A stretch of DNA of 64,000 nucleotides. Origin: Mobula hypostoma. Its lineage: Eukaryota. Location: positions 32,614,001 through 32,678,000 of the forward strand of contig NC_086108.1 of NCBI RefSeq assembly GCF_963921235.1, written 5' to 3'. Under the pieces are notes generated by a model that was given only the letters and a program-made list of their open reading frames with translations, did not search any database and was not told the DNA's origin. Positions 33,471 through 64,000 of the stretch are shown piece by piece. The stretch's first letter is position 1; each line of letters starts with the position of its first letter. The translations under genes and the position numbers were made by a program.

Positions 33471-33819
33471 CTAATAGAGAAATAGATAAACGCCACAGAG
33501 GGCCACCAGTATGGGCAAGAATTTCAGCAGGATTGGCCAAGAGCCATTTTGCTGACCACTAGGAACCACGCGCGTTTTAGTGGGCTTGATAGTGCGGTGC
33601 CACTGTGTCAAGATGGTTTCCCGGGCTTTTGGCCATTTTCCAGGTCCCATCAATCGAAACTGGTAAGGTGAGCAGGGGCCAAAGAAAACGTGAAATGCCA
33701 ACTGTGGATCACTGAAGAGGAGGTGTTTGATGTTGGGTTTTACACCGATCAGCTCAGCTATCTCATCCATGTAGGGTATGAAATCGACTTGAATGGTGTG
33801 TCTTTGGGAGGTGATGTAT
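33471..33819 (-). CDS. fmo5: FMO last coding exon ([21 protein letters not shown]...[16 protein letters not shown]...membrane anchor, TAG)
   Basis: Acceptor ...gcaaaag| restores the frame; stop codon at 33471-33473; candidate poly(A) signal AATAAA on the minus strand near 32562. Confidence 0.93.
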
Positions 33820-36800: not shown

Positions 36801-37135
36801 AGTCGCTTTTATTGCCATTTCAACCATAACTGCTGGTACAGTACACAGTAAAAACGAAACAACGTTCCTCCAGGACCATGGTGCCACATGAAACAACACA
36901 AAACTACACTAGACTACGTGAAACAACACAAAACTACATTAGACTTCAGACCTACACGGGACTACATAAAGTGCACAAAACAGTGCAAGACAGTACAATA
37001 ATAAATAAGACAATAGGCACAGTGAAGGACAAATTACAATATAATAATAAATGATGTAAATGTAAACAATTTGTTTTAGCAGGAATTGAGAAAGAAATAG
37101 AAAAAATTGCAAAGGGAGTGGAGTGGTGTTCATTT

Positions 37136-37172
<37 letters not shown>

Positions 37173-43100: not shown

Positions 43101-46100
43101 ATTTAAGTTTATAATGAATTTTAAAGAAATTAGTAGCAAAGAGGGGAACTTTTTCTGCGGGTGGGGAATGTTTAGTTAGGTCATTATGAAGAGAAGCTAA
43201 AATGCAGAGAATGATAAAAAATCTTCTCCTGAAAAGGGCACTAAATGCTTGTTCAATTAATAAACCTTAAAATTGAGACTAGACTGGATTTTAATGTACA
43301 GTGACATAAAAGGATACATATGGGTGGAACAATGACATGGATCAGCCATTATCTCACAGGACACAGAACAGGTTTAGGTATTTCTGTCTGTGTTGCTCCT
43401 CACCTGTTTCGCATGTTGACTGATTTCAGCTGCAAGGTCGCCCCCAGAGCTTCCAATTCCAATTATTACCACTCTTTTCCCTTCGAATTTTAAGGGTTCT
43501 TTATAATCTTTACTATGCATGTAGTGACCCTTGAACTTTTCTATGCCTGGGGAAAAGCAGGAGAGGCAATGTTAGAGCACTTTGCTTGGTGAGTATACGC
43601 TGTAATCATAGTAAATGTACATTACACAGTTAGCTAAATAAAGTTCATATTTGTGTTTGTGCAGTAAATTGACATCAAAATTTCAGCACAGAAGGTGGTT
43701 TATTTACTCATTGTCTCTGGCTGTTTGCTCAAGTCTATTTTCCTACTGCTTTAAATTTTCTCAAATCCCTGGTCAAGTTCTACCAGTTGGGCTCACAAGC
43801 ACAAAATCCATAAATATATTTTGTAAAAAAACATGCTAAGTATGTCCATGCTGCGTAATCCCACTTCAAAATTACTGTTCTTTTTCTCTCACTTTTCTGT
43901 CTAAATTGGGTGGGATTACAATTAGAGGTCATGGGTTAAGGGTGAAAGGTGAAAATTTTAAGGGAAACAGAAAGAGGCACTTCTTCACTCAGAGGGTTGT
44001 GAAAGTGTGGAATGAGCTACCAGTGCAAGTGGTGCATGCGAACTCAATTTCAACATTTAAGAGAAGTTTGGACAGGTGCATGGACGGTAGGGGTATGGAG
44101 GGCTATGGGCCCGGTGCCAGTTGACAGGAGTAGGCTGCTTAAATGGTTCAACATGGCCTAGATGGGCTGAAGGGTCTGTTTCTGTGCTGTACTTTTCTAT
44201 GATTCTATAACTCTAAACATGTCATACATGTTAAATATTTTCTTTCTCCCCTATCAAATTGTTTAAAATTTCCCAACACTTAAAATATTCTCCAATTTTC
44301 TAAACCTTTTCTATTAACTATTAGGTTGATAGTCATTTTTTCCCCTCATTTCTACTGATCTCCTGAATTTGCTTTTCTCTCTGCTTGCTGTATTTCCACT
44401 GTATTGTGAATTCTCATTTTATGGCAAATCTCTCGACCAGGTTTTATTTTTAATCTCATGTCTTTATTCCTTCACACCTGCAATGCCGCTTATATTTGGC
44501 GAGCCAGATTAAAGCAGCATCCTAATGTTCTTTTAATGTTTCTTTACTAATGTCCCCACCTAGGAAAAAAAGTGTCACTGTATCTCCAGTCACTGAATCC
44601 TTCTACATTTTACTGCTTTTTTTAAAAACTAAAAGTGTACCAAAAATAGCACACATTGAAAATTTGTTGCTTAATTCATACTTTGAGATAATTAAGTTGT
44701 AAATTCCTGCTAAAGTCAAGATTTGAATAATGAACAATGTTTTACTTGAATTCAGAAAATATTTGAGAGTGACTGGGGCTTCCAGACCCTCCATGTCAAA
44801 TCAAGATAAATGGAGAATATGTGCAGCAAAGGTATAGGACCTCTGTTGAGGTTGCATTTGGTGGATGGAGTGGTGAGATGAGGAAACAGCAGCACCCAGG
44901 TCTATTTTCACAAATATATATATATATGGTTTGCTCTTAATGAAAACATTTAGTGATTTATATATTTGCTCTCTCAGAACCCTTTGACCCACAACTTCAT
45001 TTAGATTCTTTTCTTTCCACGTAAAATATGGCCTCTTAATTTTTTCTTACTAAAAATAATATTCTGCAGTTGTCTATTTTAAAACTATTTTCTAATTTCA
45101 CACCCATTATGCATGCAACAAATTACAAAGAAGAAATATTTAACCAGTCAACATCCAAGCTGACCATTCCTCCTCGTACGGTCTCATCTAAAAATTTTGA
45201 AATTGTTGCGGAGTCTGGTTTCACGATTTATATTAAAAATAGGTTTCAACTGGTGGTGTCAGCTCTCATTCTCGAAGGAACTTGCTTTGCAGTTCTTGCC
45301 ACTTTGGAAACTACACATTCCTCCTGCCCTGTCTTCCACCAAGGACTTAACAAGCTACTTCACTACTTGCCTCCAAACTCCGGATGTACTGACTTTATCA
45401 AAAGGTTTGGTCATTATCACATTGCTCTTTGGGTGACATTGCTGACCATAGAATGGTAGCAGGGTGATGTGAAAAATTGTAAAAAACACATTAATTATCA
45501 TATTTGTGATGCAGAAGCTGCTTTATGAGACACTGTGCAAACAGAAATACTTTTACTAATTTCTTACACTGTATATTCAGCTTAATCCCCTCAACCTGTA
45601 CTTTAACTGATGAATGCACTCATTTTACTCACCAGGAAATGTATCCAGAGGTAAATGAGGGTCAGCGTGATGACCGGTACAGACCAAAATAGCATCAAAG
45701 GTAGTCGTTTCCAAATTTCCCTCAGTGTCGCTCGTCACTACATCCCACTGTCCAGTGGTAGAGAAATCTGTCCGCTGTGTAATACTGCAGACATTGGTCT
45801 AGAGGAAATGAAAAGGAAGGTGGTTAGACAGTGATTGTGAAGGAGGTTTTCAGAGACGTTGTCAAGATGCAAGTAAGTGAGAATTTCCACATCATTAAGT
45901 TAAATAATTAATATTCCTCTTCCAGTTTTCTGCATTTTCAATGACCCAAAGAAAGCATTGTTACTTTAATAATTCTTTTGCTTAGACTGACCAGCTCTTT
46001 GTATTTGACTCTCACACCACATCTTTTTGCTGGATACCTGTTAGAGTTAGAATGTTAATCAGACAACGAAAATAATTACATTTAAAACACGTCTATTCAC

Positions 46101-49100
46101 TTCCCCAATTTGCTCTCACTGGAAGGAGACTATTAATATTATACATGAGTCTCTTGCATTAGAAATACAAAAACAATGGTTTAGACTTCACCTGGTCCAA
46201 ACTAGCTTCCTAGACAAGTTTGCATTTGTAAAGATGTAGCCATCACAAGTTTCCTTTTGATGACCATCTCTAAACACACCAATGTCTATCTAGGCTCAAA
46301 GGCTAGTAAGAGTAGAATGTGCCTAATAATCATTTTTCACACTTGTCTCCACTGCTCAGTGACACCCTTGTTTTCCAGCTGAGCCCAATAATGTGTTTGG
46401 GGTTCTCACTGAATTACATTGCAGGATCTTGTGCATATGTGGAGCGTAAAAGGGGAAAAACTCTTGGTGAATCAGGGAATTAGGTCAATGGAAAAGGAAA
46501 GCTATGTTTGCACTTAGAAACAAAAGCATTGTGTTTAGTCAAGAATGTACTGCAGTGCCTCCACTTCTTTTGGAGATTGAGACGAGTGAAGCTTCCCACC
46601 GCCATTGTAATGTTTCAACATCATTGAGAATGTCCTGGCTGGCTGTTTTACTGTCTGGTTTGGGAATTGCTTGGCATCTGACTGCAAGTCCCTGTTACAG
46701 ATTGTGAGGAGAGTCAGAGAGTCATCAGGCTCTCTCTTTCCCCCTCCCCCAGCCCCAGGACATGTAGCAGAAATGCTGCGTTTTCAGTGCCCTCAACATT
46801 GTCTACCGACCCTCTCAACCTCTTCGACCTCTTACCATCAGGCAGAAGGTACTGCAGTATGAGAACAAGGGCTGTTAGGCTGGGTAACAGCTTTTTACCC
46901 CATACTGTGAGGTATCTGAACACCCTGCTCCCACCCAATACACATTATTTATGACAGCACCCGTAGCATTATACTGTTGTATATTTATCTATACTGTGCG
47001 ATCGAGAATCTCCGGAGGGGAAGGCCCCAAATCCTCAGCTTTGCCTATTGCCTGTTGCCGGGGTCCAGGGTTGAAACGCTTGGCAGAGATGGTGCGCGGT
47101 GCTCGGTGTCGGAGGGCTGGTCAGAGGCTCGAAGTTTTCAGACGGAATCAAGAGTCGGCTGTGGTCGGGTGCTTCCAGGGTGCTGCATCGGCAAGTTTGC
47201 GGCGCTGGAGGTTCATGGCAGGAAGAGTTTCTCCCTTCAACCGTCTGCGTAAAATGATGGGACTTTTGAGAGACTTTGAGACTTTTTTTTACCGTGCCCA
47301 TGGTCTGTTCTTCTATCAAATTACGGTATTGCTTAGCACTGTTGTAACTATATGTTATAATTATGTGGTTTTTGTCAGTTTTTATAGTCTTGGTTTGTCT
47401 TGTGTTTCTGTGATATTATTGGAGGAACATTGTATCATTTCTTAACGCATGCATTACTAAATGACAATAAAAGAGGACTGCATGTCCTCATAATCTAATC
47501 TAATCTAATCTAATCTAATATGTCATACATGTACTTTACATCAATTTATACATCCACAGAATATTTTTTAATCTCTTAATATTATTGTGTAAATATCATT
47601 TTATGTGTGTATGTGATATATGCACTGAGTTTTGCACCTTACTACCTGGGAATATTGTTTCGTTTACCTGTATACATGGGCATGGTTGAATGACAATGAA
47701 CTTGAACTTTAACCTTCAGACAGGTGATTAACTGATTCCCTGCTGAGCACCCTGGACTTCTCCCTAGTATCAAGAGTGCTACTGGAATCAGCACTAAAAG
47801 TGGTATCTCCCAATGTTAGTAATAATGATAATAATCCAAAATAGTGGTCCATTCTATTATTCCTGTTTTTGCAGCATTCAATGCTTTATAGCAAGCTGAA
47901 GAATTTAAGATTGTTATCCTCATCTTAGACCCTTCCAGGTCCTTTCTTTGCTTGACTCTGTTATTTTTTTTGAAGGTTAGTTCCTTCAACAAAATCCTTA
48001 CTAGTTTTTTGTTCCAGCATCCAGAAGGGAAAGGGAGTGAGAAAGGCACTAAGTAGACCATGGAGCCAATGGAGGTCAGTTAGAATAGGAGTGTTGGGCA
48101 AATAGAACAAAGTGCAGGATACAGACCCAGACTTATTTTAAGTTCATGGAGTTCTGAAAAGGGGAGTTTACCTCAAGTTCAGTCTGGTGATGGCAGTGAT
48201 GTGGAGGCATAGGTTACTATTTCTATATTAGATGTGTTGAGATATGTCTTATATAAGCAATGTTATAGAGTGTAAGTAAGCTTACGCTAATTTCGAGGAA
48301 ATGATATTGCGAGCTCCCAACAGCACGAAGTTCAATAGTCTGATTCATCATGATATTGGCTGGAATGGTAAAAATGTATGGGCCCAATTAATATTGAATA
48401 GCTAATAGGACATGTTCAGAGGTGAGAGAACATACCAACTTCTATAAAATTATGCTACTATTTTCAGGATTTCAATTCTCAAGCATGTCTTGGAAGGCAA
48501 CAAAGGGAACCTGAATTGGTGAGGTGATAGAACAAGCATGTCATTTCCACTCTGGTTATAGATGGCATCAAACAGAGTCACCGGGTCATAGAGTCACTGA
48601 GGAGCACAACACAGAAACAGGAGCTCACAAGGGGATTATTGTGACTTGCATCTAGCTGAGAAGCAGTACCTGTGGAGGATTCAGTTGTTGCTTTAAACTA
48701 AAAGTGAAGATCTGACTGGAATTTAGTCTGCTGGATCACCACTGCCTGTTGTTTCAGTGACAAAGGCTGATTCCAGACACCACAGGGGCAGCTGTACCCA
48801 GATACATCAATCACTCGACGTAGTGGTGGCTACGTCAGAAATATTGCCAAGTCTGATTACACAATTTGTAATTCGCTGGTGTATACTGAGCTAATGGGAC
48901 AGTATTTTGAACCAAATGAAATAGCGAGTGCCAATTTTGCTGAGCTCATCAGGTCTAAAGGCATACGGTTTGCTTCAGAGTTTGACTGTTCCAAATGACC
49001 ATCAGGAGTGAGCTCTCCTGATATTGTCAAAGTGATGCAGGGACATTTAGAAACAACATGTAAGGGAGTTTCGATTTTTATGTTACTGCGGAGGCTAATT

Positions 49101-52100
49101 AAAATGGCGTCTTTGTTATGTTAATCTGGGGAACACAGCTTTGTTGTGTTAAACACTGGGAAAGTTTGCGCTAACTGTTTTTGCTTTAGAGTCTGCTAAG
49201 AGGGTGCTATTAACCAATTGGGATAGTTGTTATGGTTCTGGTGTATTTGAAGATACTGTATGCGCGGGGTTTTGGGGCAGAAGGCGGGAGAGCGAGACAG
49301 AGGATGGACGAGGTGCTGTGAGTCCACTAACGGGGTCGGACCCCGAGCGGGACGTTCGGCGAGGAGACGGAGACGGACTCGTGTGGAGCGTCTGGTCGAC
49401 CACCGTTGTTGGTCCCAGGCGGCCGGTCGAGGTGGTCCGAGGGGTCGCAGGGTGAAGAAGAAGGTCATTGAGCTCCAACGGTTTTGTGCACGAAAAGATT
49501 GAACTTTGATAAGTGTGGCGCCTTTTTTTTCCCTTTTATATTTTATTCTCTTTTAATTATATAGATCCAGTAATATCTATAAACTGTAAATCATTTAATT
49601 GCATCTGGTGTATTGTCTGTTATTTGGGCGGGATGGGGTACCTCACACAGCATCCACACAAACGAATTATCCAGTTTGGCGGGGCCGAGGCTGTTTCCCT
49701 GGACGACAGCGAGCCGAGCGACCCTGAGGGTGGCCGGGGGAGCTATATTGTGTGGGCTTTGTCCGGGATTGAGTCTGCTGGTATGCTGCGTGGGTACCCT
49801 GTTTAAATCTGTAATGTGTGTCTCTGTGGGTTATTTGCTGGTGATTGCTGTATGCGTGGTGGGTGAGGTCTTTGTTCGAGTTCGGGCTGGCATTGACGAG
49901 TTGGAGGTGGCACTCGGGGCTGTCCATGCGGTTGGGAGAGAGAGGAAAGGGTGGTCTGATTTGGAGGTAGAGTCTGCGAATAAATGTTCTAGCTCTGGCA
50001 GGCTTCGCCTGGCACTTGGGATAGTGTCCACCCCAAGAGGGGCGGAGGCGTGCGAGACGTGGGCGGAGCGGATCACTCAGTTGTTAGATGAGTGGCAGTG
50101 CTCGGTTGAGGGAGAGCGACAGGAATTGGTTGAAAGTTTGAGTAGGCAGGCTGGTGACGGTGTTAGAGCTGTCAGGTTCACTTACACCGTAGTGACAGCT
50201 GTCAGTTATTTGAAAGTGGGGGGGGGGAGTTTTCAGTGTGTCTTCTCTGGCGAGGAGGGCGGCTAAATTGCTTGCAGTGCCAGGGGGATCAGTTGTTCAG
50301 CTGATCAGAGAGGTGTCGGGAAATTTAGTGGAGGCCCAGTGGGGGAAAGGCTTGGGGTCTCTGGGGAAGCACGTTCCCAGCAATGTACCACTGAACTTCC
50401 GCAAGGAAAAGACCCTATTCCTGAAGGCTTAGAGGGACCACGCCCCAGAGTGTCGTTATGAATAGAGGGAAGCGATGCTAAAGCTATCCTCGACCCCGGG
50501 GCGCAGATCAAGTTGTTGTACAGTTCGTTTTACAACCGGTGTCTCTGAAGCATTTATCCTTGACAACCGCAAGGGCACCAGAGACTTTGGGTACCAGTGG
50601 CAGTAGTTATCCAGAAGACGATGATTGGTTAATGACCCTGGAGTTCATGGAGGCATTGTCTGGGCACCCAGCGTGTCGAGTTGCTTCTGAGCACGTGTGT
50701 AGCAGCCTTGAGACGGTACCGAATTTAAGCGAGACCCAGCGGTGGTACGGCCTGGGGAAAGTAGCTGAGGGTGAGACCCTCTTAGTAGATGCTCCGAACC
50801 ACCACGAGGGAGGGGAGTTGACCGCTGAAGACACCTCAGTGAGAGAGAGAGGTCGCGGCAACTGGACCCTGGCGGCGTGGAAGATGAAGGCAGCGTGTGT
50901 GCGGATGATGCGATGTGGTTTAATGCGCTGCATCTGAGGGGTGGATGTTGCCAGATCCTGAGGAGTGCGGCTGTTGAGCTGAAGATGGCCTTTACTAGTT
51001 CCCCAGGATTCTTCCGATCCGAAAAGATGCCCAAGGGCATATCCGGAGCCCCTGCATCCTTCCCGCGGGGCATGAGGAAGACCATGGGGGAAGTGAAGGA
51101 GTGTGGAGTTTTGACGTACGTGGATGACCGCCTAGAGCTTGGATTCGCCTGGGGGGACTATGAGGCGAGGCAAGTGGCTGAGCCCGGGCGACCGAAGCGA
51201 AGTGTCAAATGTGGAGGAGTTTTTGGCCGGAGGTGTTTGGTGCAATGTGAGGAAAATGACCCGACATACCAGTTGAACTTCCTGGTGTTGGGACAGACGG
51301 TGGTGGACTAGGGCATGGAAACCCAGGTCGTCAATCTGAATGAGACACAGGGAAGAGAGGGGGTTTGCACCGCACTGCGGTCGTATACTGACGAATTAAT
51401 CCAGCGAGAAGAAACAATGACCCGCCTTCGAAGGGATCAGCAGAAACTCAAGACGTCGATTCAGAACAGATTGGAAGACTTGCAAGTTGGAGAAGATCAT
51501 GGAAGTGTTCTGACTAAGGTCAACAGAAAACCGAGAGCACAGGGAGGGGAGTTTGACTACACTCCCGAGGAGGTAAAGAAATGGAGGACAGATCTCGGAA
51601 AGGGGAGGCGGACGCTTGAAAGGAACCTGAAGATGACTATCGCGAGTTTAAATGAAGTGGAAAAACTGAACGTTGACCTGGAGGACGCCCTCAGGAAGAA
51701 ACAACCGGAGGCTGAACATTCTTTAACTGCTGCTTTTCAGGTCAGGGTGGAAGAAGCTGGTGGGGTAACTGCGTCCCAGATTGAGATGGCCAGGAACCCT
51801 GAGTCAGAACTGCGGAGGCTGTGGCGAGAGTTGAAGGAGTCCCCGAAGAAGCTGACGTCTCGACTGCAGGAGGCTGAAGGGGTAGCCCCGGCTAACTGGT
51901 TCAGTTTGGAGGAACTTAAACAGCAGCTATCGATCGAGGGAATGAGGAAGGATACGGGTTCGAAGGATGATGTGCTGCACATGTGGAACATGCTGCCTTT
52001 CGCTAACTTCCCCGTGATTGAGGAAGAGACCTTTGGCCCTTCTCCCACTTAGTCAGGTGTAGTGGGGAGGGCTAGCTGTGGGCAGTCTGAGTTGCGGCAG

Positions 52101-55100
52101 GATTGGGAAGGAGGAGGGGCGGGGCCCTGGACACGGGACTGGGGGCTCCGAGCTGTAGTGGTGGCCTGAGTGAGAGAGGAGTTGGCAATCAGGCCCGAGG
52201 TATCCCTAGTAGTGTCTGAGCCTTTTGGGTTTAGGCGAGGGATTACGGAGGTCTCAGAGGGTTAAGAAGCTCCCAGATAGGTTGGCCTATGGAGCGCCCG
52301 TGGGACGGGAGTAAGGTCCACTGTTTGGGGAGCACTGTCACTGTGTGTATCTGTGTATGTGTGTGTTGTGTGTCTGTAGGACTGGGTGGCGACTTATTTA
52401 TAAGTCATGAGGACATGACTTTATTTGGTGGGGGGAGAGTGTCAGGGGGTTTCGATTTTTATGTTACTGCGGCAGCTAATTAAAATGGCGTCTTTGTTAT
52501 GTTAATCTGGGGAATGCGGCTTTGTTGTGTTAAACACTGAGAAAGTTTGCGCTAACAGTTTGTTTTTGCTTTACAGTCTAATAAGAGGGTGCTATTAACC
52601 AATTGGGATAGTTGTTATGGTTCTGGTGTATTTGAAGATACTGTATGCGCGGGGTTTTGGGGCAGAAGGCGGGAGAGCGAGACAGAGGATGGACGAGGTG
52701 CTGTGAGTCCGCTAACGGGGTCGGACCCCGAGCGGGACGTTCGGCGAGGAGACGGAGACGGACTCGTGTGGAGCGTCTGGTCGACCACCGTTGTTGGTCC
52801 CAGGCGGCCGGTCGAGGTGGTCCGAGGGTCGCAGGGTGAAGAAGAAGGTCCTTGAGCTCCAACGGTTTTGTGCACGAAAAGATTGAACTTTGATAAGTGT
52901 GGCGCCTTTTTTTCCCCTTTTATATTTTATTCTCTTTTAATTATATAGTTCCAGTAATATCTATAAATTGTAAATCATTTAATTGCATCTGGTGTATTGT
53001 CTGTTATTTGGGCGGGGTGGGGTACCTCACACAGCATCCACACAAACGAATTATCCAGTTTCGCGGGGCCGAGGCTGTTTCCCTAGACGACAGCGAGCCG
53101 AGCGACCCTGAGGGTGGCCAGGGGGGCTACAAACACAACACAAAATGCTGGAGGAACTCAGCAGGCCAGGCAGCATCATGGAAAAGAGTAAACAGTCGAT
53201 GTTTTGGGCTGAGACACTTCATCAGGACTGGATGAAGTGTATCAGCCTGAAACATCAACTGTTTACTCTTTTCCATAGACGCTGTCTGGCCTGGTGAGTT
53301 CCCCCGACATTTTGCATCTGATCCTTAGATTTCCAGCATCTGTTGATTTTCTTAGTTTTGACATTTAGAACCAAAGCCATTGTTGATTGTAGAACATTTT
53401 AGGTTTCATAAGTGGAATCAAAAAGAAAGGGAGTCCATTTCAGTGCATGTGGCTGAATTGCAAAGACTGCCTGAGCATTGTCAGTTCAGTCATGGGCTTA
53501 ATGATAGCTTGTGGAATCTTAAAAGAAAGCATTCGAAAACAGCTCCTAACTGAAACACAGCTTACATTGAAATGAGCAGTGGAAATTGCTGTTTCAATGG
53601 ACACTGCAGACAGAGACACAGTCAGGAACAAAAGTGAACATGAATAGAATTGCAGCATTGTAACGTAGAATCAGGTTCGCGGGTCTGGTGAGTGAAACAG
53701 AAAACACTGACTTCGAATAAATATATTAATCATTTATTTACAAACAGTTAAAATTCGACCAAACATTCACATTCCCCAAGTTACAGAAACTATAAAGCTG
53801 AATATTCAACAAATATACATTCAACAAACATACTTAGCTAAAAGCGTGCGCAAAGCATATCTTCCCAATGGTCATGTGCACCACTTGCCTTAAACAAAGG
53901 AAGAGACAAAGAACCTCCCACACGTTCTCTCTATACATCCAGTATATTGGGAATGGGACACCAACCGGCTAACCAATGGGAAAAGCAGCTGCAGTTTCTA
54001 AACTAACCAATCCTGACAAAGTGCCTTTTGAAAATCAGAATAAACTATGCCCTCCGCCTCACCCCCTCATAGGACAAGCGACTCAACAGAAATCAGCCTG
54101 GCCAAACAAATTGTGTCGCCGTTGTGGCATGGGCTCCCATAAACCAAAGAAATGTAGGTTTAAAGACAAAACATAGAAAATACAACAAAGTAGGACAAAT
54201 ACAAAGAGTTTGTTGGGCAGACAACAATAAAAGGAATGTCCAGGGAAGAGAAAAATCTAAGAAGTCAAGTTGCAGTTTCAAAAAGAGCACTAATCTGTGT
54301 GCTGTTGACAAAAAAAAATCTGATAATGATGAAAGTGACTCAGGATTGTGCAGTCTTAAGATTTACAATGTGAAAATTAATAATAGAAAGCAATATGGCT
54401 TATACCAGAAGAGAAGGACAAATTAATTAAAATGAAATTAGATACTGGCTCAGCTGTTTCAGTCATTCCACAAAATGAGTTTGAGCGACATTTCAAAGAT
54501 ACCAAACTGAAGCCTGCAGATATCCAATTAAGAACTTATACTGAAGAAAAAAATAACTCCCATGGGAATGACATTTGTAACTGTGAAATACAAGGACCAT
54601 AGTTAGAGCCATGAATGGCTGAGACAACTACAACTTGATTGGAGACCCATCCACTATTTGCATGTCACATCCTCCGCAATGAAGCCATCTGAAAGCAAAT
54701 TAAGGAAGGTACCGGATGATGCCACAGCTCTCTCCATGCTGTACACTATGAACACTCGTCCAAAAGAGGACAAATAGGCATTGGTGCCAACCTGTGTGTG
54801 CCTCTAGTTGGAAAGCATATTGGATCAGAGAAGGACCACGCTGCTCAGAGGAACTGTGAAAGTGATGAAGGCACAGGTCCGACAACACAGTTTTTCTACG
54901 CGACATATCCGAGAAAGCTTCTGATATGTTAATCAGACAGATACTTGTGAAATGTGGCTTAGTGTTACGCTGGAAGGGAGTTCAAAGAGCTTCAGAAAAG
55001 TTGCAAGCATTCAGCTTTTGTGTGTATCAAGATCTAGAATCTACTCTGCATGCATTAAGGATATTGCACGAACTTCAAGTGGGAGACAAAAAACTGCTTG

Positions 55101-58100
55101 TAAAAGTAGATGCAAAGGCCAAAAGTCCAGCTGGATGAATCAAAGGCCAAAAAGAAAGAAATCAATAGAGATATGACAACCGAGGGTTTGTCAGAGGATG
55201 TTGTGGTTGGGGAAATGGAGAGGAGAGATCAGATCATAAAGGGAGCAATAGAACAATTAATAAGAAAATATTCCAGTGAACTAAATGGACCTTCCTAAAA
55301 TCAAGGTGCACAATCTAGAACAAGAAAAAGGAGGTGACCGAGAAAGGGAAAGGCATGAGAGGGAGTGGCGTGAAAAAGAATAGGAACATGAGAAAGAAAA
55401 AGAAAGGGATTGAAGTAATTCCAGAGAGGAAAAAGGAGAAGAAAGGTGTGCAGAGCTGTCAGAAATATTTCCTACAATATCAGAATCTTACAACCAACAC
55501 AGAGGAGGCCCCAGAGTCTGAGATTGCTTTCACGGCCACAAGTCCCATCTGCCAAGCAGAGTGATCCCTGTTTCAGGAAAGACGTTATTCGGCAAGAGTA
55601 AGAAATCCTCCACAGTGATAAAATATTTAGGCTTGAGTGGGACAATTTAAAATTTACAGTGCTGTGGATGTCCATGTATAGTAGTTGTATGACATAGTAC
55701 ACTGTGTATATAGTTAAGATGCGTTCTTTATTGAGTTGGAGTTTATACCTAAACAGGAAGGAGTGTGGTATAGTTAATATTTATGTATATATATACACAG
55801 TTGCATATGTCAACATACTACCACATGATACGTGTGTGCCTTGCTCGAAGTAAAGACGAAGCCAGACCTGCTTTCCCAGACTCCCAGGTTTCCTCTGAAT
55901 TAATTTAAGATTCTGATGTTATAACAGACAACAGATAACTTTCCTCAAAAATGGATGTAAATCTTACCGCAAATCGTATATACTTCCTCAGATTGAAATG
56001 TGTAGCATACAGGACCAAATACTTCATAACTTTGGAGTGATGCATATAGTTTGAACAATTGTCAGGAAATGGAAAGTCGCTGTAGCACATCATCTCTTTA
56101 GAGGTATTGCTGACCAGCGACTTATAGATGCTAGCACTCCCATCTGTTATTTTTTCCTGAATAAAGTTAAAAGAATACACTGATTAGCAAGTTAATACAA
56201 AATTACTAGTGTGATTCACCCCACCCTCAAATCAGTTCTCCAGAAAATCGGTCACTTTGTTTTGAGAATGAAAGTTTTATGCAGATTTTCCTTGTACCTC
56301 TGTCTCAAAGGAACGGCAACTAAGACTGCAATTTCTCTGAGCCACAATAACCAGACTGTTCATGGTGTGAGCTGTAATCACAGTATGGCTTGGATTTTGC
56401 TTGGCTTTAGTTCACTTGCAGATTGTTGGCAAATCCAAACACAAAAGATGTCAAAATTGCTGACAGATTCCTGTGGACAAAACCAATCGTTACACTCAGT
56501 TGTTGGTCGTATGTACAGAGTCCTGCAGTGTACTGCAAACAGACTGCAATTGCCCAGTATTTAAAATCTGCTCATTGATTGCACAACATGCACAGGATCC
56601 AAAAGCCCAGTGCATTAATGGAAATTTCACAGCAGAAATCATGAAAGCTAAATAAATAAAGGGAATCCATCTATTTTCTTAATTCATTTTTGTTCTTTAA
56701 GAGTTGTCTCAAATAACTGGTTGTCTCAATTAACCAATGGCCCAATTAACTGGAATTCAATGTATTTTCAAAGGCATCAATCCAATGTCAATTATTCTTT
56801 CTCTTGGAGGAAAGAAAATCTTTTGTCATTTTTATCCTTGTTTGGTAGCCGCAGCTTAAATTTTGCTAGGTCTTTGCGTTACACAAATACAACAGTTGGG
56901 AATTCTAACTTCAAGGAAGGTGGAGGGAAGAAGATCTTGACAATGTTAACTTCTGACTCTGGATCCACAACAAGAAGAGAATGCGACTTGACTTAAACAT
57001 TTCAGTTTTGCCTCTGGATACATTGAGCGTCTTCCTGTACTTACTATAGCCAATAAGTGTCCACTAGGTACACGTTCATGGTCTTCTAGTGCTGTAGACC
57101 ATCCACGACAAGGTTCAACATGTTGTGAGTTCAAAGATGCTCTTCCGGACACCACTGTTGAAAACCATGGTTATTTGGGTTGCAGTCACCTTTGTGTCAA
57201 CTTGAACCAGTCTGGCCATTTTCCTCTGACAAGGCATTTTTGCCCACAGAGCGGCAGCTCAGTCGATGTTCTTCGTTTTTCGCGCCATTCTCTGTAGACA
57301 CTGGAGACTGTTGTGTGTGAAAATCCCAGGAGACCTGCACCTTTTGAGATACTCAAACCACCCCATTTGGCACCAACAATCATTCCACGGTCAAAGTCAC
57401 TTAGATCACATTTCTTCCCCATGCTGATGTTTGCTCCGAACCTCTTGACCATGTCTGCAAGCTTTTATGTACTGAGTTGCTGCCACATAATTTGCAGATT
57501 AGATATTTGCATTAATGAACAGGTATACAGGTGTACCTAATACAGTGGCCACTGGGTGTATATTTCCAATACTTTTAAATGCAGAACAGGTGTGCATAAT
57601 TTGTGAAATATTCAGCAAACTGTGCTTCAGTGTGCAGGGCACCAACAAAGTACAGTTAACAGAGACCACCCTCCACTACCTACATACTGTGTTCTCTTTG
57701 TGCTCCCATTGCAAAACCAAGGTTCTCAGTCCCATTTTGAATGGAATGCTATTGGACTCCTCAATGTAAATATTCATCCTAAATTGTCAAACCCAAACAA
57801 TGAGAATTCCATAGTTTTGGATCGTTATCACATTGTACCTCTGACAGGTGACAGTGTTACACAATCCTGGAATTATATTCCCTCGTCACAATGAAGCTTC
57901 ATTGTGAGAGCTGAATAGAGAAGTGGGGAGTCAAGTTCGAGAATTACTCAGACATAAAGTTAAAAATCAAACCCACAGTCAATCCAAACCAATTTGAAAA
58001 CTATAGGAATTTGCACAAAAACAGTAAATGATTTGTTGTGCTAAACAAACTTTGTCCTGGGACACAGAACAGCTACCAACTTGAATATCTTCATTCAAGA

Positions 58101-59667
58101 TGGCGCCAGCGAACAATGATTCCTTGGGCAACATCTTTCGGATAGGTAATCTCTTCAATCATTTCACTTTCTCTATGTCTTGTGATTGTTCTTTTAGTCT
58201 TGATTGTGTTACGGAAACTATTGGAGCCTGCGACATGTAGTTTGGAATTCGATTGAATGTTCTAGTACTCTTGATAAGTCCAGAGAGGACCAAGAGCACA
58301 AGCTGCAATGTGGAAACGATCAGAGATGGTGCGTGGGGCCATGATCAACTCCATTTCGAAGCGCTGAGGAAGATTGAAGCACCGAGGCGAGGGAGGTCGG
58401 CAGTCACTCTCCACAGAGGCCACGGGATCGACAGCGGTTGGCAGCCCGAACGGCAGCTTTCAGACCCAGCACAGTGGTTGCTCTTCACAGAAGGACTGAG
58501 TTCGTGCAGCCACTCTCCTCGATGCTGACAGGAGGATGTTTTCAAAAATCAGAGACTTATGTGATTATTGGACTGTACTTTATATTGGTCTCCTTCAGGT
58601 TTAGGTGTGTTCTTTCTTGTTGCCGGCTGGCAGATGGGTGATATGTTATTTTTTGTTCAAGGGTGGGGTTGGGGTTTTGATGCTATTATCACTATTCTTT
58701 CCTGTGAGGGAGCAGGTTGGGGGTTTCATGTTATTGTCACTTTCTGTTTGTGAGGGAGGGGTTGGGGGTTTGGGGTTTGATGTTCCAGCTACAATTTTCC
58801 ATGTGGGCAATCTATTAGTTTTCGTGCGAGGAAGAGGGTGGGGGGTTTTGGGGTTTGCAAGTTTTGTTCCTTTTTCATTTTCGTGTTGGGGGAGGGAGAC
58901 TGATATTTTTTCTTTCAACCACTCCCATGGTTTTTCTGTACTTTGTGGCTATCTTTGACAATAAAATGAACCTTTAAATAAATGATTCAAAGTTGAGAAA
59001 GTACTGAGTTAGTTTGGTAAAACATGACTTAAACTGAACTAACAATTTCAACCCCAAAGCAAGTCATCAGGATCCCTTGAGACTGGATAGCTGAGCACCA
59101 GGTAGAAAAGTTAATACACATAAGAATAAAATTTTTGTGGAGTTACACCCACTTTAAATTGATCTCAGTGAAAGCAGATTTTTTAAAGTGCAAATGTTGG
59201 GTATGTGGAATAAAAGCAGAAGGTGTGCAAACACTCAGCAGGGCAGGCAGCATCTGTGGAAAGAGCAATACAGTTAACATTTCAGGTCAGGGATTCTTCA
59301 ACAGAACTAACTTTGTGGAAACTCACTTAATCCCACAGGATTACTCAATAACAAGTAGGTTTCATTAGTGTCTAGGGGTTCATGCTGTTACCATATCTGA
59401 TTAGGGCTCCCAGGCCCGAAACATTATCTGTTTTCCTTTTCACAAATGCTGCCTGATTTGCTGAGTATTTTCTGTTTTTATTGGCAAAGGCTGGCATTGA
59501 AACACCAAAAAACCTAATAAAACACCCAAACGTACCTGAAAGTTCCAGAGCCCTCCAATGTCGTTGCTTTTTTCAAAGCATACGGGCTCCAAGTCTTCAT
59601 CCAAACAGCATTTTATACATGCTAGCCCACTGGCTCCAGCCCCAATGATAGCGACTCGCTTGGCCAT
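33471..59667 (-). CDS. fmo5: Flavin-containing monooxygenase, FMO5-like; 8 coding exons, 1593 nt, 530 aa, apparently intact
   Basis: Exons 59667-59536, 56156-55968, 45798-45633, 43546-43404, 40364-40177, 38541-38189, 35381-35309 and 33819-33471 (132+189+166+143+188+353+73+349 nt) join in frame across GT-AG introns. Motifs present: GAGASG (FAD), [11 protein letters not shown] (FMO fingerprint), GIGSSG (NADPH), FATGY and a hydrophobic C-terminal anchor. GYPAD, SQHP and SQRHTIQ resemble FMO5. The paralog assignment is from recalled sequences, not a tree. Confidence 0.93.
35309..35381 (-). CDS. fmo5: FMO coding exon 7 ([23 protein letters not shown])
   Basis: ttgtag| acceptor, AG|gtatt donor; 73 nt with the phase 1-to-2 change needed to join the flanking exons. 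Confidence 0.92.
36155..38070 (-). mobile_element. Decayed Rex1-type LINE with a second Rex1 3' fragment nested at about 36795-37420
   Basis: Translations [44 protein letters not shown] and [12 protein letters not shown]. Confidence 0.75.
37139..37167. repeat. (TG)14 microsatellite
   Basis: Direct reading. Confidence 0.95.
38189..38541 (-). CDS. fmo5: FMO coding exon 6 ([19 protein letters not shown]...FATGY...[12 protein letters not shown])
   Basis: ttttcag| acceptor, AAG|gtattc donor, 353 nt. Confidence 0.95.
39810..39845 (+). ncRNA. Minimal type I hammerhead ribozyme motif in a Penelope terminal repeat
   Basis: AGTC-CTGACGA-A-GGGT(TTAG)GTCC-GAAACGT-C-GACT: intact core, helix I AGTC/GACT. 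Confidence 0.7.
40177..40364 (-). CDS. fmo5: FMO coding exon 5 ([15 protein letters not shown]...[13 protein letters not shown])
   Basis: ttgcag| acceptor, AG|gtctgt donor, 188 nt. Confidence 0.93.
40550..41130. mobile_element. Penelope-like 3' fragment with an inverted terminal piece
   Basis: Translation [11 protein letters not shown]; terminal repeat present in both orientations; degenerate hammerhead at about 41059-41095. Confidence 0.75.
42220..43015. mobile_element. Tigger/pogo-like non-autonomous DNA transposon, 796 bp, inserted in a CR1 fragment
   Basis: TA|cagtggattccagttaattggg ... cccaattaaccagaatccactg|TA. Confidence 0.85.
43404..43546 (-). CDS. fmo5: FMO coding exon 4 ([15 protein letters not shown]...[23 protein letters not shown])
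   Basis: ccag| acceptor, CAG|gtgag donor, 143 nt; FxGxxxHxxxY fingerprint and second Rossmann motif. Confidence 0.95.
43905..44212 (+). mobile_element. CR1 3' fragment
   Basis: Translation [28 protein letters not shown]. Confidence 0.85.
45633..45798 (-). CDS. fmo5: FMO coding exon 3 ([22 protein letters not shown]...[17 protein letters not shown])
   Basis: ctctag| acceptor, G|gtgagt donor, 166 nt; absent from the ORF track and translated by hand. Confidence 0.95.
46540..47710 (+). mobile_element. Rex1-type 3' fragment with a nested non-autonomous repeat ending in (TAATC)n at about 47490-47520
   Basis: [26 protein letters not shown] remnant; tail aataaaagagg...taatctaatc. Confidence 0.6.
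49059..49747 (+). repeat. 5' LTR of the inner element
   Basis: tgtaaggg...agctata; by manual count about 22 substitutions and 2 indels versus the 3' LTR (roughly 96-97% identical). Confidence 0.95.
49751..49769 (+). promoter_or_regulatory. Primer binding site, tRNA-Pro-like
   Basis: tgtgggctttgtccgggat versus the canonical tRNA-Pro PBS TGGGGGCTCGTCCGGGAT; 3 nt downstream of the LTR. Confidence 0.75.
51315..52052 (+). CDS. Chimeric ORF (245 aa): captured sarcomeric myosin heavy chain rod segments (MYH16-like) plus a retroelement-derived tail
   Basis: [70 protein letters not shown] and [11 protein letters not shown] match recalled myosin rod motifs (LDDLQAEEDK..LTK, KARRKxExDLKMTI, RLEEAGGATSAQIEM..EAELxKLRRELEE, KKLAxRLQEAE). 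Expression is unknown. Confidence 0.75.
   Translation: METQVVNLNETQGREGVCTALRSYTDELIQREETMTRLRRDQQKLKTSIQNRLEDLQVGEDHGSVLTKVNRKPRAQGGEFDYTPEEVKKWRTDLGKGRRTLERNLKMTIASLNEVEKLNVDLEDALRKKQPEAEHSLTAAFQVRVEEAGGVTASQIEMARNPESELRRLWRELKESPKKLTSRLQEAEGVAPANWFSLEELKQQLSIEGMRKDTGSKDDVLHMWNMLPFANFPVIEEETFGPSPT
52427..52439 (+). promoter_or_regulatory. Polypurine tract of the inner LTR element
   Basis: ggtggggggagag lies immediately before the TG of the 3' LTR. Confidence 0.85.
52440..53131 (+). repeat. 3' LTR of the inner element
   Basis: tgtcaggg...ggctaca followed by the TSD aaca. Confidence 0.95.
53132..53359. mobile_element. Hairpin mini-element made of two inverted Penelope terminal repeats; its left edge (49053-49058) lies beyond the inner LTR element
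   Basis: Inverted copies of the Penelope end meet at about 53230; 11-bp TSD gacatttagaa at 49042-49052 and 53360-53370. Confidence 0.75.
53659..54076 (-). mobile_element. Probable solo LTR (418 bp) inserted in the outer Gypsy gag
   Basis: TGT...ACA ends, minus-strand AATAAA near 53733, imperfect 5-bp flanks agcat/agcga; the gag sequence resumes on both sides. Confidence 0.62.
54778..55437 (+). pseudogene. rbm25: Intron-less RBM25 (RNA-binding motif protein 25) fragment: RRM plus start of the RE/RD-rich region; frameshifted
   Basis: [122 protein letters not shown] closely tracks vertebrate RBM25. Confidence 0.9.
55968..56156 (-). CDS. fmo5: FMO coding exon 2 ([31 protein letters not shown]...YIRFA)
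   Basis: tcag| acceptor, |gtaag donor, 189 nt, conserved SNTSKEM motif. Confidence 0.95.
57035..57560 (-). mobile_element. Tc1-like transposon remnant (N-terminal HTH only)
   Basis: Translation [42 protein letters not shown]; terminal TA-cacccagtggccact on the minus strand. Confidence 0.82.
58097..58978 (+). mobile_element. Probable non-autonomous LINE derivative (Rex1-like ends)
   Basis: caagatggcgcc start, GT-rich body, end gacaataaaatgaacc. Confidence 0.45.
59536..59667 (-). CDS. fmo5: FMO coding exon 1 ([15 protein letters not shown]...GGLWNFQ)
   Basis: Acceptor ttgttag precedes 59673, ATG at 59667, donor CAG|gtacg; 132 nt. The acceptor implies an upstream non-coding exon. Confidence 0.95.
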
Positions 59668-62296
59668 CTTCACCTAACAAAGGAAACAGCCAGTAGCTTG
59701 ACTTAATTTTACAAAATAAGAATAGATCGGGACACCATATTTATCATGTTCCCCAAATATTTACAGCTATACTTTAGAGCGCAGCCACACTATAATTGGG
59801 GCAGCACGGTAGTGTAGTGGTTAGCACAATGCTTCACAGTACCGGTACCTGGGTTCAATTCCCACCGCTGCCCGTAAGGAGTTTGTATGTTCTCTTCGTG
59901 ACTATGTGGCTTTCCTCCTGCTGCTCAGTTTCCTCCAGGGGCGGTGCTGAGGTGATGCTAGCTGGGGCTATAGCCCCAGCAGAAATTGCAATAGCCCCAC
60001 CATAGCACCACCAAGAAATTAACTGCAGCTGCTTTGCTTTCTCTGTATAGTTTTGAATACAGCTTGTTTCCCCAGTTAATCTAGTGAAACAGCGCCCCCA
60101 ATTACAATAGCACCCATGCAACAATAAAGTTATAAACTCTGTCAGATCCACTCTACTCTTCTGCTTATTCGTTCGTTGTCAATGACTTGCCGTTGCTGTC
60201 CTCAGATCAGTTAAGCTGATCTAAGATCACTTAAGGTGGTGATGTCACTCACTCTCACTCACGTGAGAGATTGATAGTATATATCCAGGCGCAGATCCGT
60301 GGTCTTGCGAGACTAACGGATGCCACACACACACACATTGTGCTTTTACAAGCCAGCGTGGGCCTGGCACATGCATTATTTTGGCGGGCGTGAAAAATGG
60401 ATCGATTTTTAGTCAGAAAACGACTTCATCCAGAGGAATCAGTGGTGTCTCAGCCTGAGCACGTCTTAATTGAAAGTGACATGCAGAAAGAAGTAAGTGG
60501 GGATGAGGACGACAGCAGTTCATTGAAGGAGTGTGAAGGCGAAGTAGAGGAACAAGAAATGGAGCGGGATTCGGAGGAGAACATGAATGAAACTGCTCTT
60601 AGTGCGAGTGGGAATACTGTTAGCGATGTTAGCCAGCAGCCTGAGGAAGGACCCCGTCGGCCAGCATTGAAAAAGTACCCTTCGCAACAGTTTGGCAATC
60701 AGCAAAGGAGTATTCGTGGCTGGTTTGACTGACTGGAATACTCGATCACGAAAGATACTACGTTCTGCTTCGCATGCAGGCATCTCCTGTGTGGAGGACA
60801 TGGGTTCCATTCTGTGTTTACCTTCACTGTCAGCGGTTACCGCAACTGGCGGAAAGCTACAACAGCTTTCAAAACCCACCATGTAAGTGCAGCTCATAAG
60901 TTTGCGATGGAGGTATGGGCCGAATTCAGATTGAGAAAACAAGATGGTTCAAGATTGGGAAATATGCTTGACAAAGGACATGCAAAGATTGTCCAAGAAA
61001 ATTGTGAGTATATGAAAGCAGTGGTTGAGTCTCTACGCTATACCGCGTGCCAAGGCATTGCCCAGCGAGGACACCAGGAGAATGATGGATCTGGCAATAG
61101 GGGAAACTTTGTTGAGTTGCTCAGTGTAATTGGGAAGTTTGATAAGACTGTAGCTAAAAAAATAGAGGACAATCCTGGAAATGCAAAAAACACCCATCAC
61201 GATATCCAAAATGAAATTATGGGTATTATGGCAGATATGGTCAGACGTCAAATAAGTACAGAAATCAAGGAGGCTGGATATTTTGCCATCATGGTGGATG
61301 AAAGTAAAGACTTGAGTAAAAAAGAGCAAATATCAGTGCTGGTGCGGTATTTGAATAACGAAACAGTGCTTGAAGAATTCTTGCACTTCACTCCAGCAGA
61401 AGAGTTGGACGCAGAGTCGTTTCTTGAAAGCATTGAACAGACACTCGCCCAGTGTATTATTGATAAGAACGCGTGTATGGGTCAGTGTTATGACGGGGTG
61501 GCAGTGATGTCCGGGTGCAATAACGGGGTACAAGAGAGGTTCAGGAAGGAGGTCCCGGCAGGCATTATATATACACTGCCATGCTCACAGACTTAACCTT
61601 GTTTTAGTGGATGTTGTGAGCAATGTACCACAAGCGGGTGAGTTTTTTGAAACTGTGCAGCTGCTTTACAACTTCTTTTCAAACTCTGTTGCCCACGATC
61701 ACAACAACAGACGGTTTGTGCTTCTCTGAAAACATTAATGGTGAGTGCAGTTGATTTAAAAAAAATTTGGGCCAAGACTAATGCTGATTATTGTTATTAT
61801 TTTGTGGTGGATACCCCATAGTCCTTATGTTTCCTGCAAATCCTAAAATATTACATTTACTGCTATTAAGCCTACTGGTTTTGCTTAGACTTCCAAGTGG
61901 TGATTCTGCTGATTTTTGTTTAAATTCAATAGCTGAATTAATTGAGGTATTGCATTGTCAGAGTACGATTTGTCCAACTCCTGGTAAAGCCTTGCATCTG
62001 TTGTTTGACTTTAATAACCGTGTATCTTTTGGCATTACTGTCTATGCAATGCGAATAGCAGTGGGTTCGTGTTGTGTTTTTCAGTTGAAAAGCCTGCATT
62101 TGACGCTGATTGCGGGATTGGTGCATGATTCACGTTGTCCGCTGTTGCTCAGATGCTCTGTTTGTTTTTTTTGTTTATGCTCCATGTCACCCAGGTTGTC
62201 TCCGATGCCGTTGACACTGTAACAGTTCACTTCTATGTTAGATCTATCAATTGCTGTTGCTTGTGAATCAACAGAGGCATTTATAGTAGGCACATA

Positions 62297-62697
62297 ATGC
62301 TGCCCCACCACCGCCTCATACCCCATCCGTTATTTATTTATATACAAACATTCTTTCTCTCTGTCTCCTTTTTCTCCCTCTGTCCCTCTGACTATACCCC
62401 TTGCCCATCCTCTGGGTTTTTCCCCCCTCCCCCTTGTCTTTCTCCCTGGGCCTCCTGTCCCATGATCCTCTCATATCCCCTTTGCCTATCACCTGTCCAG
62501 CTCTTGTCTCCATCCCTCCCCCTCCTGTCTTCTCCTATCATTTTGGATCTCCCCCTCCCCCGCCCACTTTCAAATCTCTTACTAGCTCTTCTTTCAGTTA
62601 GTCCTGACGAAGGGTCTCGGCCCGAAACGTCGACTGTACCTCTTCCTAGAGATGCTGCCTGGTCTGCTGCGTTCACCAGCAACTTTTATGTGTGTTA
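62297..62697 (+). mobile_element. Penelope-like terminal fragment nested in the hAT element
   Basis: Pyrimidine-rich tract followed by the terminal repeat gatgctgcctggtctgctgcgttcaccagcaac. Confidence 0.8.
62600..62635 (+). ncRNA. Minimal type I hammerhead ribozyme motif, best-preserved copy
   Basis: AGTC-CTGACGA-A-GGGT(CTCG)GCCC-GAAACGT-C-GACT; predicted cleavage after C62631. Confidence 0.78.
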
Positions 62698-64000
62698 CAT
62701 AATGCTTGAAACTGACTTTTTAACGCCTCATGTCTGGCCTTGCGAATACATATTACAATACAGTGCATCCCTCAGCACCATCACTGAATCATTTTGCCCC
62801 TCCGTAGCACCAGCAAGAAAAAATCTCTGGCGCTGCCACTGGTTTCCTCCCACAGTCCAAAGATGTACTGGTTGGCAGGTTAATTGCTCAGTGTAAATTG
62901 TCCCGTGATTAAGCTAGGATTAAGTTGGGGGATTGCTGGGTAGTGCCGGTCAAAGCCTAATCTGTGCGGTATCTCAATAAATAAATATTACACAGCACAG
63001 CATGAACTCTTTTTAGGGTTGATGACAAATTCCAAGTGGTTACACCAAGCTAATGGAAATGTTGGGCTCTTTTTGGTTTTAATTTTTGTTGAGTATTGTC
63101 CATGGTTGTTAAATAATAATAATGGATAAAATGTGGGGGTTCCTGTTACTAGCTGGTACACATTCTGTGTGACAACACTCACTACCACCCAAACCCCATA
63201 TGGATCAAACTCTAGGTTAAGTCTGCACAATGGCATTAATTATTTCCAATCAGCATGTCTGTCAGAAATGTGTCTAATTATCACCTGTTTTTAAAATCAT
63301 CAGACAAGAAGTATGTCCTTCGGAAACACAAACCCCTCCAGGATGACAGCTCTGGAAATTGTGACCTAACCTTTGCTCTGACTGCGAGATCCAGCAGTTC
63401 ATGTTTACTAAGCCTCTAACCCTGGTCTTTCCCTATACCAGGAAAAAAAAAGCATTTATATTTGTTTTTCCTGTTCTTATTCTAAATGCCTGCTTAATTT
63501 GCTGTTTTAGACAATACACTGTGTTAGCCCTTCATGTGAAAATAAAATCCAGCCATCATCTTTATTTTTCATTGTTCTATTCATTAACAATACATGTGCA
63601 ATGTTACCTGTGAGATTCTATTTCCATAATGTTAAATCAGACTTTGTATCCAAGTTCCCTTGAAGATTGAGATTAACATAGAATTAGTGACAGTGGATGG
63701 CTGATGGTCAGTACAGAATCGATGGGCCAAAGGGCTTGTCTCTATGCCAACTTGGAGCAATGACATTCCTCAGTTATTTACTGGAACACTAACTGTCCAT
63801 TTCCCTCTCATAGATGCTGTTTGACGAGCTGAGATCTTCCAGTGTTTAATATATTGGTGCTCGAGTGTCATTGGGGTCATAAACTGGAAACACTATAATA
63901 TTCTAAGCAACAGCTGTTCATTCAGTCAAACAATACATATTCCAAAGTGAAGACATTAAAGCTATAATGTTACCTTTCTTTAGTAAAAGCAAATATCTAC

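Follow-up and report, generated by a model that had tools for sequence, protein, structure and literature searches.

Capture of host mRNAs by retrotransposons with long terminal repeats (LTRs) is a mechanism already known in metazoans, where LTR-mediated retrocopies were described by Tan et al. (2016, PMC5131818). The sections of that study considered here also include older vertebrate retrocopies whose element remnants have been lost on one side and an amplified Drosophila retrocopy present at more than one site (PMC5131818). Here, we compare these systems with a locus of Mobula hypostoma. The window, i.e., the whole stretch of 64,000 nt that was analyzed (NCBI RefSeq assembly GCF_963921235.1, contig NC_086108.1, positions 32,614,001 to 32,678,000 of the forward strand, numbered from 1 below), contains a decayed Ty3/Gypsy copy, hereafter the outer element, which lies antisense within an intron of a minus-strand flavin monooxygenase (FMO) gene. 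The enzymatic part of its pol is replaced by sequence of the splicing factor gene RBM25, a replacement that had been proposed in a first-pass annotation made from the sequence alone.

RBM25 sequence in place of pol

The cargo consists of about 700 nt of RBM25 sequence (54730 to about 55432), on the same strand as the outer element. Its main block (54730 to 55331, plus strand), common to other copies, is captured RBM25 cDNA that runs without introns from a short exon through the RNA recognition motif (RRM) and a helical region to the lysine-rich end of the following exon. The RRM (54890 to 55096, plus strand) is still open and lies within an open frame (54890 to 55123) identified by Pfam as RRM_1 (E = 6.6e−5); the best of the 211 matches to this frame was an RBM25-like protein of Heptranchias perlo (78% identical, E = 1e−28). 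A frameshift-aware alignment placed residues 1 to 203 of the isoform P0122 on 54736 to 55345 with 70% identity (140 of 199 matched codons). This alignment involves four frameshifts and two stops, and two further stops fall in the stretch rich in RE and RD dipeptides (RE/RD). Judged by its reading frame, with four frameshifts and several stops, the cargo is not a functional retrogene. Aligned with the full-length protein P0026, it shows a gap of 39 residues ahead of 55332 to 55432. Thus, the first-pass annotation was right about the identity and orientation of the fragment, whereas the length it gave (about 660 nt) was too short and the continuity of the coding sequence did not hold.

According to these protein alignments, the cargo jumps roughly 40 to 60 codons into the RE/RD region. 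The RE/RD-coding stretch of 101 nt at this end (55332 to 55432, plus strand) is bounded by a 10-nt purine repeat and is skipped in other copies. It encodes 11 RE, ER, RD, or DR dipeptides versus 3.0 in shuffled sequences (none of 2,000 shuffles reached this number) and, in comparisons with each of three RBM25 proteins, scored higher than all of 500 shuffles. Its composition and protein score suggest that it probably derives from RBM25 sequence further downstream, past an internal jump. A search for full-length chondrichthyan RBM25 gave 8 matches, none of them from a named cartilaginous fish, which leaves the RE/RD region without a close protein reference. For the RBM25 RRM, the PDB returned no match but only other RRMs, and the ESM Atlas only generic RRM clusters.

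The first exon of the cargo, 48 nt long (54730 to 54777), was found only in P0002, P0122, and P0123, i.e., in the Heptranchias proteins and one unnamed cluster member, and alternative acceptors lie 12 nt apart downstream of it. The first 14 residues of P0122 belong to an exon missing from the bony-vertebrate RBM25 proteins compared, and the window has the splice form of P0122, without the four residues found in P0002 and P0123. The 48-nt exon may therefore be a chondrichthyan cassette exon, the retrocopy keeping one splice form. With a shark as the best named match and this exon confined to the cluster of that shark, the sequence by itself points to a cartilaginous fish as host. A retained intron at the 5′ end of the cargo was also considered and rejected, because this stretch is exonic in P0122 and P0123.

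The intron loss announced by the first-pass annotation was checked against genomic DNA at one boundary (about 55170), where it holds. The intron reference was L001, a metagenome contig of vertebrate host DNA with RBM25 exons and introns at 100 to 330 and 2519 to 2922, which was the only locus obtained from the metagenome scan. It has an AG-bounded exon start that maps to this position, and the window runs through it without an intron. Loss of the other introns is presumed from the exon structure of human RBM25. Neither a target-site duplication (TSD) nor a poly(A) tail accompanies the cargo, as had been stated: when the last 20 nt before the 5′ junction are compared with the first 20 nt after the 3′ junction, the longest shared word has 3 nt, and the longest run of A in 55300 to 55460 is 5.

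On its left side, the cargo follows the zinc knuckle, the aspartyl protease, and the linker to the reverse transcriptase (RT) of the outer element (54081 to 54728, plus strand), which are frameshifted, contain stops, and were delimited by alignment with the gag-pol relative P0138 (54081 to 54723). A CX2CX4HX4C knuckle (about 54114) and a DTG protease motif (about 54440) are legible in the translation. In this copy, the protease linker continues in frame into the first RBM25 exon until a stop at 54775, an in-frame fusion that concerns the 5′ junction only. On its right side, the outer element resumes with the last 62 or so codons of pol and the 3′ untranslated region (55433 to 55750, plus strand), a stretch with high multi-copy cover whose protein match is weak (13 of 38 residues, E = 0.001). 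Between both sides, a six-frame Pfam scan of 53120 to 56121 revealed no RT, RNase H, or integrase, and three long gag-pol relatives gave no tblastn match between 54717 and 56100 at E values up to 1, in agreement with the earlier claim that these enzymes are missing. The relatives P0138 and P0157 match both sides of the cargo, the match on the side of the tail being weak. The left flank aligned with a 1,324-aa relative up to residue 405 or so, and RT, RNase H, and integrase occupy residues 500 to 1147 of this protein; about 850 codons (some 2.5 kb) carrying the three enzymes were replaced, a rough figure given that the relative is distant. An insertion into intact pol was rejected, given that the two sides do not form contiguous pol and that a TSD is missing; the lack of poly(A) also agrees with replacement. 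A profile-free search with the protease piece gave 133 protein matches to gag-pol relatives of the outer element, among which there was no RBM25 sequence, i.e., no annotated fusion. A word-indexed search with the same piece gave no match, and nothing was found in viral contigs for the protease piece or the junction pattern.

Contigs of 4 of 24 sequencing runs were used on 54300 to 56160 at a likeness of at least 80%: X1 (guessed to be RNA) and X2 (DNA) from organism A, and the DNA runs X6 from organism B and X14 from organism C. The sample of X1 differs from that of X2. The contig results given here are those among the ones listed, which comprise 40 of the 322 variant rows, 15 of the 840 joints, 24 of the 3,889 loose ends, and 32 of the 52,625 pieces. 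Contigs of X1 (records 4 and 7), from another sample of the same organism, cross the 5′ junction with a single difference over 440 nt and the 3′ region with none over 461 nt, showing that the junctions are not assembly errors. Five X1 contigs depart from the window at 54728 into other sequence, interpreted as the continuation of pol. Together with the gag-pol alignments and the motifs, these contigs bear out the earlier placement of gag, zinc knuckle, and protease up to about 54728.

Multiple copies in three organisms

All 24 variant sites listed in 54910 to 55218 presented the other letter in many contigs (41 to 125 in X2, 46 to 125 in X6, and 40 to 113 in X14, with at most 128 countable). 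Summed contig depth, which does not equal copy number, was 5,095 to 46,905 over the RBM25 block in the three DNA runs, versus 9 to 14 for single-copy contigs. The single-copy depth was taken from single contigs because half-depth variants in this gene's exon were attributed to an FMO paralog (see below). Even the lowest sites of the block had 28 to 74 times the single-copy depth, and the medians divided by a worst-case overlap of 31 gave 25 to 44. In all three DNA runs, the median depth of the block was 0.25 to 0.27 of that of the left flank and 0.45 of that of the right flank or tail, and the high cover begins and ends at the boundaries of the cargo. We infer that the RBM25-bearing copies number tens at least, and probably hundreds or more.

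Other copies have the structure found in the window. Four listed contigs (records 22, 23, 30, and 31), diverged by 16 to 18%, cross 55170 without an intron. Record 18 of X2, which extends from 54618 to 54853 and crosses the 5′ junction, is 18% diverged (42 differences and 5 gaps), and it is a paralog because X2 matches the locus exactly elsewhere (record 24). Record 10 of X14 was not counted as a paralog, since its divergence of 7% could be that of the orthologous site. On the other side, joints lead from RBM25 straight to the tail, either from 55331 to 55433 (4, 3, and 2 contigs in the three DNA runs) or from 55332 to 55435 (2, 1, and 1 contigs), which shows that organisms A, B, and C all have a short form lacking the 101 nt of RE/RD sequence. 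These results support a non-autonomous element family with multiple, presumably dispersed copies that share this structure.

A family of RBM25-bearing elements had been predicted from the sequence, and the prediction is supported by the many diverged intron-free contigs in the DNA runs of three organisms, some of which cross the same junctions. Neither a single copy with a TSD and contiguous pol nor retained introns, the two outcomes that had been named as speaking against the proposal, was observed. The suggestion that the family inflates RBM25-like annotations found no backing: there was no ray among the named rows of the matches listed (120 of 211), and the single chondrichthyan entry with a name has the look of a genuine gene model.

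Origin of the chimera

Most probably, spliced RBM25 mRNA was captured by template switching and then spread as part of a non-autonomous element. The mRNA would have been co-packaged with Ty3/Gypsy RNA, and during minus-strand synthesis, the reverse transcriptase would have copied the LTR, the polypurine tract (PPT), and the pol tail before jumping to the RBM25 mRNA in a purine-rich tract. After copying about 600 to 700 nt of RBM25 back through the RRM, it would have returned to the element RNA just past the protease, at an RBM25 exon boundary, with the replacement of the 2.5 kb of RT, RNase H, and integrase as the outcome. The chimera would retain its cis signals and could be mobilized in trans by autonomous relatives, giving rise to a non-autonomous family. 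A further jump or deletion between the two near-identical purine repeats may have led to the long form seen in this copy and to the short form without the 101 nt. The copy in the window would have landed antisense in the FMO intron before the split of A, B, and C, lost its 5′ end, taken three insertions, and decayed. Template switching to an mRNA and back explains why pol is replaced, why the cargo is truncated at two ends and lies in sense orientation, and why TSD and poly(A) are lacking. The alignment of P0123 extends past the 5′ junction to 54721, covering 8 nt that are compatible with the element as well (a codon-level overlap), and element contigs leave at 54728, while one parent-like X1 contig joins at 54731. 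At the 3′ side, the 10-nt purine word recurs at both ends of 55332 to 55432.

Several points weigh against this reading. The X1 contig joining at 54731, which is probably derived from the parent, has splice-acceptor-like letters upstream and not the expected previous exon. The putative microsimilarity at the 5′ switch point is seen at the codon level only. At 80% likeness, the 101-nt piece is left uncovered by parent-like X1 contigs, with a depth of 18 to 26 versus about 160 to 430 on the RRM block. This copy has no 5′ LTR and hence no element TSD, which would reflect a later loss. Regarding the family, short overlapping contigs inflate the summed depth, there is one clear 5′-junction paralog among the 32 of 52,625 pieces listed, and no copy is traceable to its LTRs.

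The acceptor-like letters of the parent-like contig are what one would expect from a retrovirus-style read-through transduction, with an element located in or near RBM25, an element donor spliced to an RBM25 acceptor at the 5′ junction, and recombination during reverse transcription responsible for the 3′ junction only. The position of the 5′ junction, within 1 to 2 nt of an RBM25 exon start, and a GT of the element contigs at the matching position are also consistent with it. Yet the putative donor fits the consensus only at GT and +3, and over the three codons upstream of the boundary, P0123 is similar to the element, a similarity accounted for by a template switch but not required by splicing; read-through is quite unlikely. 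The A/G-rich tract at the 3′ end of the cargo, able to prime, and the LINE-like RT-coding repeats that fill the window from 20 to 31 kb would suit another origin, in which a retrocopy of RBM25 made by a long interspersed nuclear element (LINE), internally primed and truncated, was inserted into the Gypsy element with a target-site deletion and amplified as a passenger. A 2026 preprint, in the part considered here, assigns non-mammalian retrocopies mainly to CR1/Tx1 (10.64898/2026.06.26.734816). The marks of LINE-processed pseudogenes, i.e., poly(A), TSD, and mainly 5′ truncation, are not those of the cargo, whose 3′ truncation exceeds half of the mRNA, and the 2.5-kb loss takes out the enzymes yet spares the PPT and the LTR. 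Such features appear in the account of Tan et al. (PMC5131818) as marks of LTR-mediated copies, and a LINE origin is very unlikely. Finally, the RBM25-like contigs could be separate retrocopies or DNA-level duplications and the chimera single or rare, as the few junction-spanning paralogs among the pieces listed and the use of depth, which is no copy number, might suggest. This is the least probable of the explanations, since the cover starts and stops with the cargo and amounts to 0.45 of that of the tail in three organisms, paralogous contigs cross both junctions, and long contigs diverge by 15 to 18%.

It is doubtful that the RBM25 piece was more than an inert passenger of the template-switching chimera. 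The founding element might have made an in-frame Gag-protease-RBM25(RRM) fusion, or the RBM25 exons might have served as splicing or packaging signals, helping an enzyme-less element to outcompete its helpers. Such a role is conceivable because the cargo is in sense orientation, holds a whole RRM, is in frame with the protease linker at the 5′ junction, and accounts for a large share of the cover of the family. Against it, of the 12 differences listed for the RRM frame, 7 affect the first or second position of a codon, a pattern like that of neutral decay in this copy, and non-autonomous elements spread well without useful cargo. If true, a retrotransposon would here have co-opted a domain of a host splicing factor to stand where pol had been.

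Structure and age of the outer element

Downstream of the pol tail, direct reading of the sequence revealed a PPT-like stretch (55751 to 55763, plus strand). The 163 bp that follow (55764 to 55926, plus strand), with TG...CA ends, would be the 3′ LTR, as suggested by the preceding PPT and by a cover that drops to the single-copy level past its end. It is unpaired in the window: no partner above shuffles was found in 31000 to 49060, 53120 to 54800, or 56000 to 64000, nor any by self-BLAST. The first-pass annotation was thus correct about the resumption of the element and the PPT, while the integrase tail it described corresponds to a weak match and its 3′ LTR is a putative one. Neither a 5′ LTR nor a primer-binding site was recognized upstream of the outer gag, and the 5′ LTR is absent from the window. 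The order of domains in the relatives P0157 and P0206, gag-protease-RT-RNase H-integrase, is that of Ty3/Gypsy, the window having no RT for phylogeny; its gag and protease are matched by these two relatives at 27 to 50% and 22 to 49%.

The outer gag is interrupted by three later insertions. Its decayed 5′ part (48828 to 49058, plus strand) was found by tblastn with residues 3 to 80 of P0138 (aligned at 48828 to 49049, E = 2e−4). It is followed by a younger and different LTR element (49059 to 53131, plus strand), whose LTRs (49059 to 49745 and 52440 to 53131) are 96.2% identical, have TG...CA ends, and are flanked by a 4-bp TSD; Pfam and protein searches showed that this inner element carries a PNMA-like gag and an RT remnant. 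The second insertion is a short interspersed repeat (53132 to 53361) with many copies within the window. The gag continues at 53362 to 53658 (plus strand; residues 79 to 175 of P0138 aligned at 53362 to 53635, 61 to 68% identity, E = 4e−26) up to the third insertion (53659 to 54076), a solo-LTR-like piece of about 420 bp that forms a gap in the P0138 alignment and whose TG...CA ends were read from the sequence. An 11-nt word recurs, TSD-like, just before the inner element and after the short repeat, and it may be the TSD of the latter. Repeats in 49059 to 53361 indicate an order of nesting in which the short repeat entered the outer gag and was followed by the inner LTR element at the edge of that repeat.

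The inner element also contains an open frame of 246 aa (51312 to 52052), of coiled-coil type, downstream of the short RT remnant. No host parent was found for it, the matches being generic (myosin rods, a weak CENP-H, and unnamed clusters). The earlier description of the RBM25 cargo as a second, independent capture is not supported, since no first capture was found in the inner element. Elsewhere in the window, three LINE-like RT-coding copies, 61 to 93% alike, lie close together in 20000 to 31000; we take them to be CR1-like. The long frames at 60394 to 61596 presumably belong to a hAT/ZMYM1-type transposase, which they resemble.

The LTR and the FMO exon are joined in contigs of organisms B (record 32 of X6, 335 nt with 3 differences and 7 gaps) and C (record 15 of X14, 334 nt with 12), which places the insertion before the split of A, B, and C. 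Of 198 positions compared between the window and the parent-like X1 contig, 28 differ (about 14%), and long paralogous contigs diverge by the 15 to 18% mentioned above. This copy is old and dead, in agreement with its three nested insertions.

The FMO host gene and a candidate cryptic exon

The host exon next to the outer element (55968 to 56159, minus strand) matches the Pfam family FMO-like (E = 1.6e−26), and the element lies in the intron after it. The next FMO exon lies near 45630 to 45810 (minus strand). Half-depth variants were observed in 55954 to 56160 in organisms A and B, together with a 34-difference contig in organism C, and they point to a close FMO paralog.

One X1 contig, which has a depth of 223 and whose shorter side counts 29 letters, connects 54688 with 55968 and omits 1,279 nt that have GT..AG ends on the minus strand and a pyrimidine tract. 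This joint was absent from the three DNA runs (X2, X6, and X14). It defines a candidate cryptic FMO exon on the antisense strand of the Gypsy protease region (54455 to 54688, minus strand), which is in frame and reaches a stop after 7 codons. Record 3 of X1 covers 54455 to 54689 without differences, at a depth of 209 versus 743 for the FMO exon contig and 5 to 6 for the intron. From one contig in one run guessed to be RNA, we regard it as a candidate poison or terminal exon derived from a transposable element.

Comparison with known systems

The RBM25 element offers a clear vertebrate case of gene capture by an LTR retrotransposon with large amplification of the cargo, where the published cases compared have one to about a dozen copies. 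The mechanism is known, and the scale looks unusual for a vertebrate. Beyond this, the copy in the window adds evidence that a long and a short form exist, as well as a poison exon that the antisense strand of the element may give to FMO. A literature search, with most subscription papers outside its reach, found no report of an RBM25-bearing element.

Two 2026 preprints are relevant to how such families are counted. In the part of the first considered here, MIPOL1, SUDS3, SDF2L1, SLU7, and ZNF276 are the top parents of cartilaginous-fish retrocopies, and lineage profiles are framed as selective filtering (10.64898/2026.06.26.734816). Single captures riding on amplified elements would yield equal retrocopy counts without selection. 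The companion text describes a shared pipeline that discards candidates at least 40% repeat-masked (10.64898/2026.06.24.732306), so a family of the RBM25 type could be missed outright. RBM25 is not named in the main text of either preprint or of a third paper searched for it, and the supplementary parent tables of the former may list it.

The RBM25 element has most of the hallmarks of an LTR-mediated retrocopy, i.e., intron loss, discontinuous flanks from the same element, and no poly(A) or TSD. Like the cases in the sections of Tan et al. (2016, PMC5131818) considered here, it contains a partial, intron-free mRNA piece, truncated at both ends, that replaces internal open reading frames between discontinuous sequence of an LTR element. 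Those cases likewise lack poly(A) and TSD, are in sense orientation, include genic insertions, and were in part re-amplified, and in the BLASTOPIA cases, the switch points are near exon junctions (PMC5131818). They are young and occupy one or few sites, whereas the RBM25 element is old (about 14%), occurs in three organisms, and has a high copy number; this copy, whose 5′ LTR is missing, also does not show the pair of LTRs expected of an integrated product according to that study (PMC5131818). Maize Bs1 and human HERV-K/FAM8A1 also hold host mRNA sequence within an LTR element, but Bs1, from a plant, combines pieces of three genes, and FAM8A1 is described there as a single case (PMC5131818).

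Two further systems come close in other respects. The Pxyfem retrocopies of PxyMasc in the diamondback moth are, as reported, multi-copy partial cDNAs with an LTR-element flank and with long and short forms (PMC9674220). They differ in that they occupy 11 W-linked loci at 93% identity and have a shown silencing role (PMC9674220), while the RBM25 copies are far more diverged and apparently more numerous. Among vertebrates, the crocodilian endogenous retroviruses with KIT-ligand or nectin3 mRNA are described as an LTR lineage that multiplied with a captured mRNA and predates speciation (PMC4299795), which is also the case here. Those elements are retroviral, with 9 and 6 copies, open reading frames that are unbroken and subject to purifying selection, and env replaced or nothing lost (PMC4299795). 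In contrast, the RBM25 element is of the Ty3/Gypsy type and has lost pol, and its cargo is partial and, in this copy, broken.

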